From a virus (taxonomy: Duplodnaviria; Heunggongvirae; Uroviricota; Caudoviricetes), in the IMG/VR virus record IMGVR_UViG_2675903433_000028, positions 1 to 19,453 of that record: a DNA stretch of 19,453 nucleotides; one strand, given 5' to 3'. How positions within the stretch are numbered: position 1 is the first letter of the stretch; each line of letters starts with the position of its first letter. Under the pieces are notes generated by a model. The model was not told the DNA's origin and did not search any database. It saw only the letters and a list, made by a program, of their open reading frames with translations. Of this stretch, positions 10,950-18,014 are shown in pieces. The position numbers and the translations under genes are program-made.

Positions 10950-11558
<609 letters not shown>

Positions 11559-11710
11559 AGTCATTTGTCCATTGAGTGGGAATATTGCCGTCCGGGAGTA
11601 ATATGGTATCATTAAGTTAGAGTAGGTAGTGTAGATGGAATGAGGAGTATCATATGGTTATCACACAATCAGGTTGCTTTGAGTCAGGTTGTTTTGAGTA
11701 AAACAATAAA

Positions 11711-11737
11711 ACGCCCTTTAATGGGCGTATTTTTTTT
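11711..11737. terminator. Intrinsic terminator (bidirectional type) between the tail operon and the AT-rich membrane protein gene
   Basis: acgccc-tttaat-gggcgt is followed by attttttttt on the plus strand and preceded by an A-rich run, giving a U-tract on the minus strand as well. Confidence 0.6.
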
Positions 11738-11747
11738 AGGATTTAAA

Positions 11748-12641
11748 ATGCATTCTTTACAGAAATACATAAAACATAAATATACTCACTTAACTTTTTT
11801 TCTCTCATTACTTTTTTTCATGATATTTGAATCTCGAGAAGATATTATCAAGAAAATATTATCTTTTTCTCTCGATGAAGTTTTACCATTCTTAATGTTT
11901 GCGTTCTTCTCCGCCTTTATCAGCATAACAATAAAGGAAAAGATAGCAAAAAAATACCCAGAAACAAACGATGGGATTACCATTATCGCTTTAATCTTTG
12001 GTGTAACACTATATAGTGTATTTATATTATATTATTTATATGGTGATGTATACCAATCCACAATTGCTTTACTTATAAGTTCTGTGCTACTTGGCTCTGG
12101 GTGGTGGGTTCAGGCTACTGTGAGTAAAGTAGCCGCAAGAAAATCACACACCTTAAATACACTAATGAATCAAAGAAACAGTGAATTATTTCACAAAAAA
12201 GTCTCATCGGTAGCGAATACGTTCGGGCTTAGAAAAACCATAAATGAAATTATTGCCAAACAAAGACTTATCCCAAATGATAAAGATTTAAAAAATAAAA
12301 AGGTCCATGATAAATACATATCAGCAGGTAATGATATGTTCTTCGTTCTTAATTATTATGAGTTTATCTGTTCAGGAATAATAAATGGAGACTTTGATGA
12401 AGATTCAATGAGAGAATGTCTTGGACAAATTGTTCCGGGTCTCGAGGTTAGAGCATTTCATTTTATAAGAATTGCAAGAGAAATTTCAGGGAGTAGCTGC
12501 TTCTGTAATTTTGTTGCTGTTTCAGATAAATGGTCTACTAATGGAGGATCTCTTATTCTCAGACACGAGAAAGGAGAACCTGTGATCAATAACCTGACCC
12601 ATTGCTTTGAAGAAACAGCCTGTTATAACACAACATCTTAA
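11748..12641 (+). CDS. AT-rich membrane protein: N-terminal ~4 transmembrane helices plus ~170-aa soluble C-terminal domain; function unknown (candidate superinfection-exclusion or abortive-infection type moron)
   Basis: The ORF-track ORF begins at 11640 but reads through the terminator hairpin. The ATG at 11748 has an AGGA Shine-Dalgarno 8 nt upstream and is taken as the start (MHSLQKYIKHKYTHLTFFLSLLFFMIF...). Hydrophobic segments are obvious in the first ~130 aa. Composition is visibly AT-rich compared with the tail genes. Confidence 0.6.
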   Translation: MHSLQKYIKHKYTHLTFFLSLLFFMIFESREDIIKKILSFSLDEVLPFLMFAFFSAFISITIKEKIAKKYPETNDGITIIALIFGVTLYSVFILYYLYGDVYQSTIALLISSVLLGSGWWVQATVSKVAARKSHTLNTLMNQRNSELFHKKVSSVANTFGLRKTINEIIAKQRLIPNDKDLKNKKVHDKYISAGNDMFFVLNYYEFICSGIINGDFDEDSMRECLGQIVPGLEVRAFHFIRIAREISGSSCFCNFVAVSDKWSTNGGSLILRHEKGEPVINNLTHCFEETACYNTTS

Positions 12642-12647
12642 TATTTT

Positions 12648-12674
12648 GTAACCCATAATCGCTTTATGGGTTAC
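12648..12674. terminator. Hairpin between convergent genes (9-bp stem), probable terminator
   Basis: gtaacccat-aatcgcttt-atgggttac; the flanking U-tract is only moderate. Confidence 0.4.
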
Positions 12675-12692
12675 GTTAAATTTGCAATAAAA

Positions 12693-13169
12693 TTAATCGC
12701 CGCGCTTTAAGCATCCATCGTTTTTAGCTTGTTGATATAACTTACTTAGCCCAGAAAGAGGAAATGTAGCAATTTTTTCATTATCAACATAAGCATCTAT
12801 CGCATTAGCATTTGAATCTGCTGCATCTTGCCAAAAGGCATACCACCAAGAATCTCCAACCATTGACCCAAGATTGCTAAAAGGGTATTGCTCACCATCT
12901 AGTGTTAATACTATTTTACTCTTGTCAGCATTATACTCTTTTTTATTATTCGACGACCTTAGCAACAGGCCTAAACTACCTGCACTATCTGGTGATCCAT
13001 ACATGAAACCCATATCACATAAAAAACTTATCTTATCACCATTTTGATTATGGATTGTATATTCTCTCCCCCCTCTATCTTCAATTACATTCCATTGTAG
13101 AGGATCAATTTTTGCAAATACTCCTGCTGAAATTAACGATACAAATAATAAAAACCATCTCATATTCAT
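12693..13169 (-). CDS. Secreted/periplasmic protein, 158 aa, with N-terminal signal peptide; function unknown
   Basis: N-terminus MNMRWFLLFVSLISAGVFA-KID resembles a cleavable signal peptide. There is no lipobox Cys and no C-terminal aromatic residue, so it is not an obvious Lom/Ail barrel or lipoprotein. AT-rich. Confidence 0.6.
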   Translation of the reverse strand: MNMRWFLLFVSLISAGVFAKIDPLQWNVIEDRGGREYTIHNQNGDKISFLCDMGFMYGSPDSAGSLGLLLRSSNNKKEYNADKSKIVLTLDGEQYPFSNLGSMVGDSWWYAFWQDAADSNANAIDAYVDNEKIATFPLSGLSKLYQQAKNDGCLKRGD

Positions 13170-13191
13170 TTTTCTCGCTTCTTATCTGTAA

Positions 13192-13542
13192 TTATTCTGC
13201 AATATCATTTGCCCATTGCACGGCAGCAAAATGAGTGCCAAGGCCACTCAGGAAAGCAATTATTCCCAAAACAATACTAGCTGCTGTTGATTCAAACAAA
13301 GCACCAATGCTATAGCCAATAGCTCCCCATACTAAGCTAAAGACAATCATCAATGGTATTGCCAGAAATTTTATTCTTAAACTAAAAATCAGTCCAAGAA
13401 ATGAACCACCAAAGGCCCACCATGATTTAGACATTAAACCTATCAGTATTGACAGAATTCCTATTTCAATAAAGAGAATATTAGATTGCTCTTCATTGAA
13501 TTTCGCATTTGTTACACCTTTACGAACATGTTCAGATGACAT
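13192..13542 (-). CDS. Small inner-membrane protein, 116 aa, 3-4 predicted TM helices; co-transcribed with the downstream secreted protein gene
   Basis: GGAG Shine-Dalgarno before the ATG at 13542. The sequence is largely hydrophobic (ILFIEIGILSILIGL..., FLAIPLMIVFSLVWGAIGYSIGALF..., IVLGIIAFLSGLG). There is a 22-bp gap to the next gene. Confidence 0.6.
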   Translation of the reverse strand: MSSEHVRKGVTNAKFNEEQSNILFIEIGILSILIGLMSKSWWAFGGSFLGLIFSLRIKFLAIPLMIVFSLVWGAIGYSIGALFESTAASIVLGIIAFLSGLGTHFAAVQWANDIAE

Positions 13543-13688
13543 GATTAACTATCTCCAGCCACAGATAAAACGCCTTAAAATAACATGTTGTAGCACAAAG
13601 TTTCACCATGCAATGGTCAAAGTCTTTGATCCATATCAATTAGAGTTATACATTTTAGTTGCATAGCTAATAATTTATACGGCCGCAA

Positions 13689-13701
13689 ATTGCTCTAATT
13701 A
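13689..13701 (+). promoter_or_regulatory. Copy 1 of a recurring intergenic motif ATTGCTCTAAT(T/A)A
   Basis: attgctctaatta; the same core occurs at 15380-15393 and 17145-17160, always in plus orientation and upstream of a plus-strand gene. Confidence 0.4.
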
Positions 13702-13795
13702 TTTTGTTTTTTTTAGTTTCATATGCTACATTAACTCGCTTGCGTGCTAATGCATTTTCGGTTTATCCTAAACAAGCATCTTAGTAAAACGGATG

Positions 13796-13854
13796 CCGGG
13801 ATTGGAACCCCGGATAATGCAAAAGGCGACACAGACGCCAAAAGCGTCTTTTTT
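13796..13854 (+). ncRNA. Possible small RNA or leader element: hairpin followed by an intrinsic terminator, with no upstream plus-strand ORF
   Basis: Hairpin ccggg-attggaac-cccgg (13796-13813), then agacgc-caaaa-gcgtct + TTTTT (13833-13854). The nearest upstream genes are on the opposite strand. Confidence 0.35.
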
Positions 13855-13903
13855 ATGTCATGCCATCGCACAACCATACGTAGCACATAGCTACGAGATC
13901 AAT

Positions 13904-13979
13904 GGTAGTGCTGGCTGGGCTGCCAAAAGGCAGGCCGGTTCCCTTTTGCGCCGGTAGTTCCAACCCAGTCAGTGCTACC
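13904..13979 (+). promoter_or_regulatory. Long RNA stem-loop in the leader of the antirepressor operon (16-bp stem; plus-strand specific because of three G-U pairs)
   Basis: ggtagtgctggctggg (13904-13919) pairs with cccagtcagtgctacc (13964-13979): 13 Watson-Crick plus 3 G-U pairs on the plus-strand RNA, which would be C-A mismatches on the minus strand. The loop contains an inner hairpin caaaagg/ccttttg. Confidence 0.5.
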
Positions 13980-14039
13980 GCCATTGAGATTGGAACCTCA
14001 CGCGGTAGCTCCTTAAATTAGCAAAAGGAGGCTGCCAAT

Positions 14040-17160: not shown

Positions 17161-17309
17161 CCATGCATACTTTCAACACCTCTAGTTTGCCATGAGGAAA
17201 ACTCATAGGCGTCCTGGTAAGATGACGTAGTTAGCAAATCAGAACGTCCAATTATTGCAATTAATAAACAACTAACGGACAATTCTACCTAACAATAAGT
17301 GGAGTTAAC

Positions 17310-18014
17310 ATGTTGAACCGAAGAACATTTAATGTATTCTGCGATGAATCCTGTCACCTACTAAATGATCATAATAAAGTCATGGTATTGGGTGCGCTTT
17401 GGTGTCCTGGCACTATCACAAAAAAAATTGCTAGAGACATCAAGGGATTAAAATTAAAACACAATTTAAAACCTGATTTCGAAATCAAGTGGACTAAAGT
17501 ATCTGCGTCCAAAGTTGAATTTTACTTAGAGGTCGTAGATTACTTCTTCAGCAACCCAGCATTGCGCTTTAGAGGTGTTGTTGTTCCTGATAAAGAGCAA
17601 CTGGACCATGCTCGATTCCATCAAGATCATAATACTTTCTATTATAAGATGTTTTTTTATGTCTTAAAAAACATAATAGAAAGTAACAACACATACAATA
17701 TCTACCTAGATATAAAAGATACTTTAGGTATTGAAAAAATTGAGAAATTAAGAGGAGTTCTTCACAATGATCGCTATGATTACAATCATGAGTCGATAAA
17801 CAGAATTCAACATATACGATCTCATGAAGTGCAACAATTGCAGCTAACGGATCTTTTCATTGGTGCGTTAGGCTACGTTCATCGAGGAATGAATAGCAAC
17901 GCGGGAAAAATCCAAGTCATAAACAGGATAAAATCACATACAAACAGGGAGTTACTAAAAAGCACTCTTCCAACAGAAAGTAAATTTAATATTTTCGTGT
18001 GGGAGGCTCGCTGA
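17310..18014 (+). CDS. DUF3800-like protein (234 aa), function unknown
   Basis: GGAG Shine-Dalgarno 5 nt upstream. The N-terminal FCDESCHL and C-terminal QLQLTDLFIGALGY motifs match my recollection of the DUF3800 family (conserved Asp/Glu near the N-terminus, Q-L-x-D-L near the C-terminus). The gene is AT-rich. Confidence 0.5.
   Translation: MLNRRTFNVFCDESCHLLNDHNKVMVLGALWCPGTITKKIARDIKGLKLKHNLKPDFEIKWTKVSASKVEFYLEVVDYFFSNPALRFRGVVVPDKEQLDHARFHQDHNTFYYKMFFYVLKNIIESNNTYNIYLDIKDTLGIEKIEKLRGVLHNDRYDYNHESINRIQHIRSHEVQQLQLTDLFIGALGYVHRGMNSNAGKIQVINRIKSHTNRELLKSTLPTESKFNIFVWEAR

Follow-up and report, generated by a model that had tools for sequence, protein, structure and literature searches.

P1-like phage-plasmids are common in clinical Escherichia coli, and the interval between their gene pmgC, with the late promoter LPsit, and the C1 repressor operator Oc4 is historically the superinfection-exclusion locus. 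In P1 this interval holds simC, simB and simA, and in P7 it holds upf50.0 and upf50.5; SimC is an exported periplasmic protein. In type III toxin-antitoxin (TA) and abortive-infection (Abi) loci, a promoter is followed by short tandem repeats, a terminator and the toxin gene, with gaps of 1–50 bp, and the terminator sets the ratio of the upstream product to the protein (PMC3401426). Here we analyse the 19,453 nt of IMG/VR record IMGVR_UViG_2675903433_000028 (Caudoviricetes; hereafter the window), which belong to a P1-like phage-plasmid (Punavirus). At the left edge of the sim interval the window carries a gene for a membrane protein of the DUF4760 family (11748..12641, plus strand, 297 amino acids), which an earlier examination of the sequence by a model (the original prediction) had described as an AT-rich moron bracketed by terminators. 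The gene follows a short translated open reading frame (ORF) and an intrinsic terminator, a testable regulatory device that is conserved from Acinetobacter to Burkholderia and has been missed by annotation pipelines.

Anatomy of the leader cassette

Upstream of the DUF4760 gene and on the same strand there is a sigma-70-like promoter candidate (11585..11612; TTGCCG-16 nt-TATCAT with a TG, i.e. an extended -10), with a predicted transcription start near 11619. Its -10 falls within a 23-bp stretch that is kept in all three DUF4760-carrying P1-like variants and is missing from P1. The Shine-Dalgarno (SD) sequence GAGGAG (11642..11647) then stands 6 nt before the ATG of an unannotated mini-ORF of 15 codons plus stop (11654..11701; MVITQSGCFESGCFE), which has counterparts with strong SD sequences ahead of the DUF4760 gene at some 20 further loci and contains a tandem 15-nt direct repeat (11669..11698; TCAGGTTGCTTTGAG and TCAGGTTGTTTTGAG) coding for two SGCFE blocks. 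An intrinsic terminator follows 6–9 nt past the mini-ORF stop (11708..11737, core hairpin 11711–11728; stem ACGCCC/GGGCGT extended by A:U pairs, then T8) and ends 10 nt before the DUF4760 start, which has its own SD sequence, AGGA (11738..11741). An Rfam search of the leader gave sub-threshold, terminator-driven matches only, including Phe_leader with 22 bits against a threshold of 55.

The original prediction took the gene to be insulated by hairpins on both sides. Both hairpins are among the 6 terminator-like sites found by a scan of the window, where 1.8 were expected, and both fold better than shuffled sequences (z -2.9 upstream and -4.8 downstream). The downstream one, with a 12-bp stem (12647..12675) between the convergent DUF4760 gene and orf158, is a candidate bidirectional terminator. 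The upstream hairpin, however, does not simply insulate the gene from the tail operon, but closes the conserved, translated mini-ORF.

The P1 counterpart of the upstream hairpin is situated 3′ of simC, on the other strand, and P1 (NC_005856, L002 ~2160–2270) keeps a decayed leader next to this gene: a 23-bp deletion takes the -10, the mini-ORF is cut to MVIT and a stop codon, one 15-bp repeat is lost and the T-run is interrupted. The retention of this remnant suggests that an ancestor of P1 probably carried a DUF4760 cassette.

Conservation of the leader among DUF4760 homologues

The leader was first recognised from the upstream DNA of five divergent homologues, and was then scored by an automatic test that required an SD sequence and an ORF of 5–35 codons with its stop 0–70 nt before a terminator. 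The order SD, mini-ORF, intrinsic terminator, SD and DUF4760 gene was found in 21 of 26 divergent homologue loci, versus 2–3% of control genes. The test was positive for 10 of the 11 DUF4760 genes with exact starts and for 11 of the 15 with approximate starts; among control ORFs of at least 150 amino acids from the same loci, the figures were 6/293 and 10/293.

The mini-peptides fall into families that track the clades of the DUF4760 proteins. They read MKKFDSGCFDSGCFD in Erwinia, MKNTYQSGCIESGCIE in Pectobacterium, MLHNLLKNITENAYFE in Serratia, MKNIVIFGHGAFE in Haemophilus, MQKIESGCLESGCLESGCLE and MRKFESGCLETGCLETGCLE in metagenome contigs L040 and L041, MTYKFNSGSNESGCNE in an IMG/VR contig and MKKTLTVGFGEG in a lambdoid paralogue of E. 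coli. Three Pseudomonas-type loci (two Pseudomonas genomes and one IMG/VR contig) have M..(L/S)IGCEE; Burkholderia, Thauera, Denitromonas and an alphaproteobacterial metagenome-assembled genome (MAG) have ..EGTG(LF/AC/SC) or ..EGAGLG; and Acinetobacter phage TRS1 and Rheinheimera have ..GYG(I/L)G. The motif always abuts the stop codon; tandem repeats, with 2–3 motif copies, are confined to the enteric clade, and many clades have a single motif.

Twelve units of the form (S/T)GC(F/L/I)(E/D) showed 143 synonymous versus 84 nonsynonymous pairwise codon differences; G and C never change, S changes to T only, and the repeat units of one locus differ almost wholly by synonymous changes. Because codon differences are mostly synonymous, we infer that the mini-ORF is translated and that its peptide is under selection. 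In ten homologue loci, 14–40 nt separate the end of the terminator from the DUF4760 start, too short a gap for a separate promoter, so that the gene depends on read-through.

We consider this anatomy of the cassette, and the dependence of the DUF4760 gene on read-through, to be highly probable. Three points weigh against this conclusion: the control ORFs were crudely called, 5 of the 26 loci lack a detectable leader, and the gap from the mini-ORF stop to the terminator varies between 6 and 41 nt (modal 14–18 nt). As far as the literature searched shows, a mini-ORF/terminator leader of the DUF4760 family is undescribed.

Control of read-through

With this arrangement, most transcripts would stop after the mini-ORF and the membrane protein would be made only from terminator read-through; the protein would thus be kept scarce or conditional, and the mini-peptide, or its translation, would be abundant. 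A membrane protein gated in this way is by implication dangerous or conditional, as expected of an Abi or addiction effector. A scan of the window for C1 operators found only those at 13689 and 15380, and none near the DUF4760 cassette, which would be expressed in the lysogen, outside C1 control.

How read-through might be controlled was examined with a thermodynamic model. When a ribosome footprint was placed at each codon, the terminator probability stayed at 0.9 or above in 15 of 17 loci, and fell only at the stop codon, by steric masking where the gap is 6–7 nt (0.49 in the window, 0.14 in L040). While the 3′ arm is still untranscribed, the modelled 5′ arm formed no more upstream pairs than its shuffled controls, and a ribosome-position-dependent pairing of repeat 2 with the 5′ arm appeared in the window and in the Erwinia locus only. 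Attenuation of the trp type is therefore unsupported, with a terminator that is stable across ribosome positions and no 5′-arm pairing above shuffled sequences, and this is also a point against the explanation favoured below. The device could act in cis, through the nascent peptide or ribosome-polymerase coupling at the hairpin; by analogy with the layout of ToxIN, it could also act in trans, the peptide being a labile antidote in excess over the protein.

The DUF4760 gene and its product

The gene runs from the ATG at 11748 to the TAA at 12639–12641. An open frame of 297 codons has a chance probability of ~4e-11 at the local composition; PGAP calls the same ORF in related plasmids, and an identical protein is deposited at NCBI as CTZ97134.1 ('Uncharacterised protein'). 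The start at 11748 is backed by the SD sequence AGGA and by N-terminal homology in 56%-identical proteins. Two other starts were disfavoured: an in-frame ATG at 11640, giving 333 amino acids, overlaps the mini-ORF SD sequence and spans the terminator, and the M25 start used by PHROGs, giving 273, has no SD sequence and leaves out homology that continues upstream of it. Among P1-like copies, dN/dS is 0.03–0.12, with 3–18 synonymous versus 1–8 nonsynonymous codon changes and zero stops, and the gene is therefore functional and under purifying selection.

In composition, the gene (GC 0.32, GC at third positions (GC3) 0.27) differs from pmgC, tub and ant1 (GC 0.47–0.49, GC3 ~0.5), in agreement with the AT-richness first noted. 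It is also transcribed, as predicted, divergently from the tail and baseplate genes pmgC, tub, pmgB and sit, all on the minus strand. The AT-rich DNA, however, is not a single-gene insert, because the island extends over ~11736–13688 and also holds two minus-strand ORFs. Of the usual marks of a moron, the gene shows a deviant GC content (0.32 vs 0.47), and presence or absence between collinear genomes (it is not in P1 or P7); as candidates for a promoter and a terminator of its own there are the consensus match at 11585–11612, with a terminator between this site and the gene, and the downstream hairpin. Its horizontal acquisition as an accessory gene is borne out by the foreign composition, the flanking hairpins and its occurrence in no more than 46 of 5426 complete E. 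coli genomes, on a plasmid in each case.

Hydropathy reveals hydrophobic segments at residues 14–27, 45–62, 77–99 and 104–125; the first of these spans few residues, and hydrophobicity is only moderate in the fourth. A K/R-rich N-terminus, loop 2 and stretch after the fourth transmembrane (TM) helix indicate an N-in/C-in topology by the positive-inside rule, and thus a cytoplasmic location of the C-terminal 170 residues. An AlphaFold2 (AF2) model built from 42 homologues is all-helical (predicted local distance difference test 86.6). The division into about four N-terminal TM helices (residues 14–125; 11787..12122) and a cytoplasmic domain of ~170 residues, which the original prediction had proposed, thus agrees with hydropathy, charge distribution and model.

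The original prediction could not place the protein in any family. It does, however, match Pfam DUF4760 (PF15956) over residues 120–262 (12105..12533), the cytoplasmic all-helical domain, with 52.4 bits against a gathering cutoff of 25 (E 8e-14), and RefSeq already names it so; no other Pfam family appears at E ≤ 0.1 or even at E ≤ 10. All 42 aligned homologues match the DUF4760 hidden Markov model. Full-length relatives numbered 23 in a single-sequence search and 54 in a profile search, with 226 representatives among 1.84 billion proteins. The protein is thus a catalogued but uncharacterised member of its family, and not categorically new. With other DUF4760 proteins, including the short-form ones, it shares a TM helix ending in GWW, the helix K-S-H-T-x-N-x-x-M-x-Q-R-N-S, N-Y-Y-E-F and D-x-D; unlike the short members, it is of the long form and has some three further TM helices at its N-terminus.

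The residues invariant in the 42 homologues include Q103, W119, W120, Q122, H134, T135, M140, R143, N202, Y204, E205, F206, D217, C224 and E233; within the membrane region, Y102-Q103 is invariant where the chain turns in the periplasm, as is G118-W119-W120-x-Q122 where TM4 ends. The cysteines and histidines remarked upon in the C-terminal domain exist, but those of the SSCFCNF and HCFEETAC segments are not conserved, and only C224 and H134 are invariant; a metal-binding Cys/His site was rejected on this ground. Searches of NCBIfam, PADLOC and PHROGs yielded no function for the protein, PDB sequence searches with profiles gave no match, and a BFVD search gave one weak unnamed match. An apparent homologue with 12 repeats, P0044, was discarded as a low-complexity false positive.

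The sim slot of P1-like phage-plasmids

Gene order in the window is that of P1: on the minus strand sit (6018–9350), pmgB, tub and pmgC, then a variable stretch, and to its right Oc4, isrK-like and C4 RNAs, icd, ant1/2, kilA and repL. DNA to the left of 11735 matches P1 pmgC and the P1 late promoter region, the right edge of the slot is an Oc4-like C1 operator (13689..13705, plus strand), and some 25 E. coli plasmids of ~97 kb share the 2.3-kb stretch at 99% identity. In a search with joined flanks, the spans implied ~1.1–2.4 kb of differing content across several hundred plasmids; other contents of the slot in P1-like plasmids include DUF5384, SH3 and sim-like genes. For a gene hitherto 'hypothetical', this adds to the family and the corrected anatomy a place in the sim/immI accessory slot.

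The DUF4760 gene lies at the left edge of the slot, paired with three different right-hand cassettes, and joined to it when intact are an SH3 protein, fusions with the N-terminus of SimA, and orf158 paralogues; it can coexist with SimA-like cassettes. In the window, its neighbours outside the module are orf158 (12693..13169, minus strand), coding for a secreted protein of 158 amino acids with a signal peptide, and a gene for a 116-amino-acid protein with 3–4 TM helices (13192..13542, minus strand). In L012 orf158 has been cut short and in L013 it carries no coding-sequence (CDS) annotation, the DUF4760 gene being intact in both. The neighbours in the AT-rich island are, by sequence comparison, independent of the DUF4760 gene. 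An all-against-all blastp of slot proteins found no similarity of the DUF4760 protein to SimA, SimB or SimC.

The remainder of the slot (window 12693–13542; L012 4695–6156; L013 5164–7337) is a mosaic of secreted and membrane proteins. Proteins of the orf158 family, with 29–37% identity and a common C-terminal ...NDGCLKR, occur in three different cassettes, and recombination breakpoints lie inside orf158. Some cassettes open with a protein whose first 41–50 residues are ~90% identical to P1 SimA, fused to a different body.

Homologues as cargo of other mobile elements

Homologues of the DUF4760 gene were found directly after the alpha primase of an Erwinia P4-like satellite, between lysozyme/DUF2514 and integrase genes in a Pseudomonas putida prophage, between two integrases in E. 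coli phage phi467 and 79 E. coli chromosomes, at the genome end of Pseudomonas phage Riah, and as a moron in the tail module of Acinetobacter phage TRS1. Others adjoin a relaxase in Pectobacterium and an integrase in a metagenome contig, or stand at the edge of an AlpA/integrase island at two chromosomal sites in Serratia. The genes most often found next to the homologues are integrases. A minor defence hotspot has been reported in the primase-att region of P4 (PMC13586616). In the part of Table S5 of Rousset et al. that was available, which covers the P2 gpA-gpQ hotspot, 'DUF4760' occurs at least 197 times, usually beside StbA/StbB, and is not among the systems tested there.

Two further E. 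coli lineages of the family were noticed. A 302-amino-acid paralogue with 30% identity (L042 9001–9909, NZ_AP018808), present in 79 of 5426 complete genomes, sits between two integrases with its own mini-ORF (MKKTLTVGFGEG) and terminator, and WP_001068329 stands beside StbA/StbB in many P2-like prophage hotspots, as far as the accessible part of the source goes. A tblastn search with a short-form member found no P2-like phage.

A conserved partner or a defence-island neighbourhood was sought around the homologues and not found: among 35 predicted neighbour proteins, up to two genes away in about 20 homologue loci, none was a conserved partner. Likewise, an adjacent cyclase or TIR gene of the CBASS, Pycsar or Thoeris type was absent from the window and not conserved in the ~20 loci. 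In an Azoarcus MAG (L027 6773–8827), two genes from a short-form DUF4760 gene, the N-terminus of a 684-amino-acid protein gave a TIR-like match (PADLOC TIR effector, E 1e-6), and the protein also contains a TPR-S sensor repeat; this is a single weak case that may be a coincidence.

Possible functions

Our best reading, which we place just short of an even chance, is that the DUF4760 protein is a gated membrane effector of phage exclusion or abortive infection. It would best account for the combination of single-gene mobile cargo, the P1 exclusion slot, the P2 and P4 hotspots, freedom from C1 control, a membrane anchor joined to a conserved domain in the cytoplasm, and terminator-throttled expression. 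In particular, exclusion or Abi is made more plausible by the position of the gene in the sim slot and of its homologues at the edges of prophages, satellites and islands. The TM bundle would be the effector, permeabilising the membrane or blocking genome entry; sensing or regulation would fall to the DUF4760 domain, in which polar residues are invariant. An anti-phage role taken by itself is tentative, and we hold it to be clearly short of an even chance. Should a phage assay be positive, it would explain many unexplained occupants of the P2 and P4 hotspots, in which DUF4760 recurs.

Several results speak against an exclusion or Abi effector. The PADLOC check named by the original prediction came out negative: the DUF4760 protein and two neighbours matched none of 5027 PADLOC-DB v2 models, with 0 families at E ≤ 1. 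All PHROG relatives are of 'unknown function'. In the literature searched, which comprised 8 million papers, DUF4760 has one passing mention and no experiment, and the accession and family identifiers return nothing. Neighbours at chromosomal loci gave sporadic, weak defence-like matches only, the Haemophilus copy has housekeeping surroundings, and the promoter is a consensus match only.

The terminator-gated layout also fits a pair made up of a membrane toxin, the DUF4760 protein, and a labile antidote acting in trans, the mini-peptide, as in a TA-like addiction or Abi pair; the terminator would keep the peptide in excess, and a shut-off of host gene expression or plasmid loss would free the toxin. 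The order of promoter, tandem repeats, terminator and toxin, with gaps of 1–50 bp, is that of type III TA/Abi loci (PMC3401426), the peptide motifs differ between DUF4760 clades as those of a co-evolving partner would, the 2–3 motif copies of the enteric clade could match an oligomer, and addiction modules are useful to a plasmid prophage such as P1. Nevertheless, the peptides have only 8–20 amino acids and their binding is putative, many clades have one motif and no repeats, a motif abutting the stop codon fits a cis-acting nascent peptide better, and the protein has no similarity to ToxN, CptN or TenpN. We therefore find such a pair unlikely.

The silence of the defence databases would suit a lysogenic-conversion or maintenance gene unrelated to phage defence, acting for example in envelope physiology, stress tolerance or maintenance of the element. 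Fitness factors are frequent products of morons, the Haemophilus copy stands among housekeeping genes and, in the portion of the hotspot table at hand, DUF4760 stands beside the partition-like genes StbA/StbB in P2-like prophages. However, the gene is patchy (46/5426 E. coli genomes), it occupies the sim slot and recognised P2/P4 hotspots, and a constitutive conversion factor would not usually be gated so tightly by a terminator, all of which make this explanation improbable.

A part in the phage's own cycle, for instance in setting the time of lysis, as an antiholin-like protein, or at the membrane when DNA enters or leaves, could be argued from the multi-TM nature of the protein and from the lysozyme and spanin genes that homologues adjoin in Pseudomonas prophages and phage Riah. 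It seems very improbable, because the gene is dispensable, being absent from P1, P7 and most P1-like elements that keep the flanking genes; in addition, it is far from the P1 lysis genes in the window, its strand yielded neither a late promoter nor a C1 operator, and homologues also occur in the non-phage elements of Pectobacterium and Serratia.

Structural comparison with plant EP domains

The best structural match of the predicted soluble domain was to the plant EDS1/PAD4/SAG101 family, both being all-helical, and the full-length model matched generic helical bundles only. The matched part would be the EP domain, as judged from the all-helical query, and we treat it as a lead only. A 38-sequence EP alignment was built, with the AtEDS1 EP sequence checked against PDB 7xdd_B. 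Homology by sequence was rejected: hhalign of the DUF4760 domain against this alignment gave a probability of 0.2%, Pfam EDS1_EP (PF18117) was unmatched at E ≤ 10 and the PDB profile search was silent. A putative EP-like fold of the DUF4760 domain is, as far as the literature searched shows, undescribed; if the modelled fold were confirmed, it would be the first structural relative of this plant immune domain outside plants.

That the EP domain has its bacterial or phage counterpart in the DUF4760 domain, which would bind an ADP-ribose-derived or other nucleotide signal as a one-piece receptor and membrane effector or as a membrane-tethered signal sponge, is a remote prospect: EP domains have been reported without structural relatives outside their own family (PMC6377607) and the invariant polar residues could line a pocket, but the sequence comparisons are negative, neither a TIR nor another signal-making partner is conserved nearby, and the aligned region is taken to be the EP domain by inference. 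Equally far-fetched is the broader idea that DUF4760 cassettes are a widespread, unrecognised immune module of mobile elements, in which an abundant mini-peptide would be the labile sensor or antidote and a rare membrane protein the one-piece receptor-effector with a prokaryotic EP counterpart; if true, it would link plant TIR-pathway receptors to phage-borne bacterial immunity.

Other features of the window

To the right of the slot, Rfam identifies an isrK match (58.5 bits, 13776–13854, plus strand) directly upstream of the C4 antisense RNA (76.2 bits, 13898–13985, plus strand), so that the P1-type immI leader region resembles the Salmonella island small RNA isrK. A tRNA-like T-arm had been suspected near 13800; ARAGORN finds no tRNA, and the isrK/C4 RNA region lies there instead. 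The RefSeq CDS for a 39-amino-acid 'ash family protein' (L001 8401–8520; window ~13900–14020) overlaps the C4 RNA gene and probably reflects an error of annotation.

An 11-bp perfect inverted repeat (11523–11533 and 11547–11557; CTCGTAGAATC ... GATTCTACGAG) closely precedes the pmgC start; it falls in the P1-annotated late promoter LPsit and is conserved in P1 and P7. An ORF of 477 amino acids (4232–5665, minus strand) lies beyond one of 119 amino acids (5662–6021), two genes upstream of sit; its RefSeq name, 'bleomycin hydrolase' (L001 1–106), is unlikely within a structural block. A second AT-rich stretch (17200–18000, GC 0.33–0.38) corresponds to an rlfA-like ORF (17310–18014) of the P1 backbone.

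Comparison with known systems

Like simABC of P1, the DUF4760 gene is an accessory gene of the slot between pmgC/LPsit and Oc4, variable among P1-like elements; unlike them, it is on the opposite strand, and its product has a cytoplasmic domain on a TM anchor. The predicted N-termini of SimA, SimB and SimC are hydrophobic and signal-peptide-like, whereas the DUF4760 protein is multi-TM and has no signal peptide.

With SieB, T4 Imm and RexB the protein shares the character of a small inner-membrane protein carried as prophage cargo, with an expected action at the membrane, and SieB appears in the same P2 hotspot table, in the part available. It differs from them in a larger conserved cytoplasmic domain and in the leader cassette, and no homology to them was detected, DUF4760 being the only Pfam match at E ≤ 0.1. 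Compared with the plant EDS1/PAD4/SAG101 EP domain (PF18117), the DUF4760 domain is membrane-tethered and comes without a lipase-like domain.

The cassette resembles the leader-peptide attenuators of the trp/his and pyrBI/pyrE types in having a short ORF with a strong SD sequence, an intrinsic terminator and a regulated gene, as well as repeated codons. In contrast with these, no conserved antiterminator structure was found in it, the distance from stop to hairpin ranges over 6–41 nt, and the gene is mobile-element cargo rather than part of a biosynthetic operon.

In its layout the cassette is like ToxIN, CptIN and TenpIN, with the promoter candidate at 11585–11612, the 2 x 15 nt repeats at 11669–11698, the hairpin at 11708–11737 and the gene from 11748. 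Unlike in these systems, however, the product matches DUF4760 only and is a membrane protein instead of a ToxN-type RNase, and the 15-nt repeats are contained in a translated ORF, in which they are conserved at the level of the peptide and not of the RNA.

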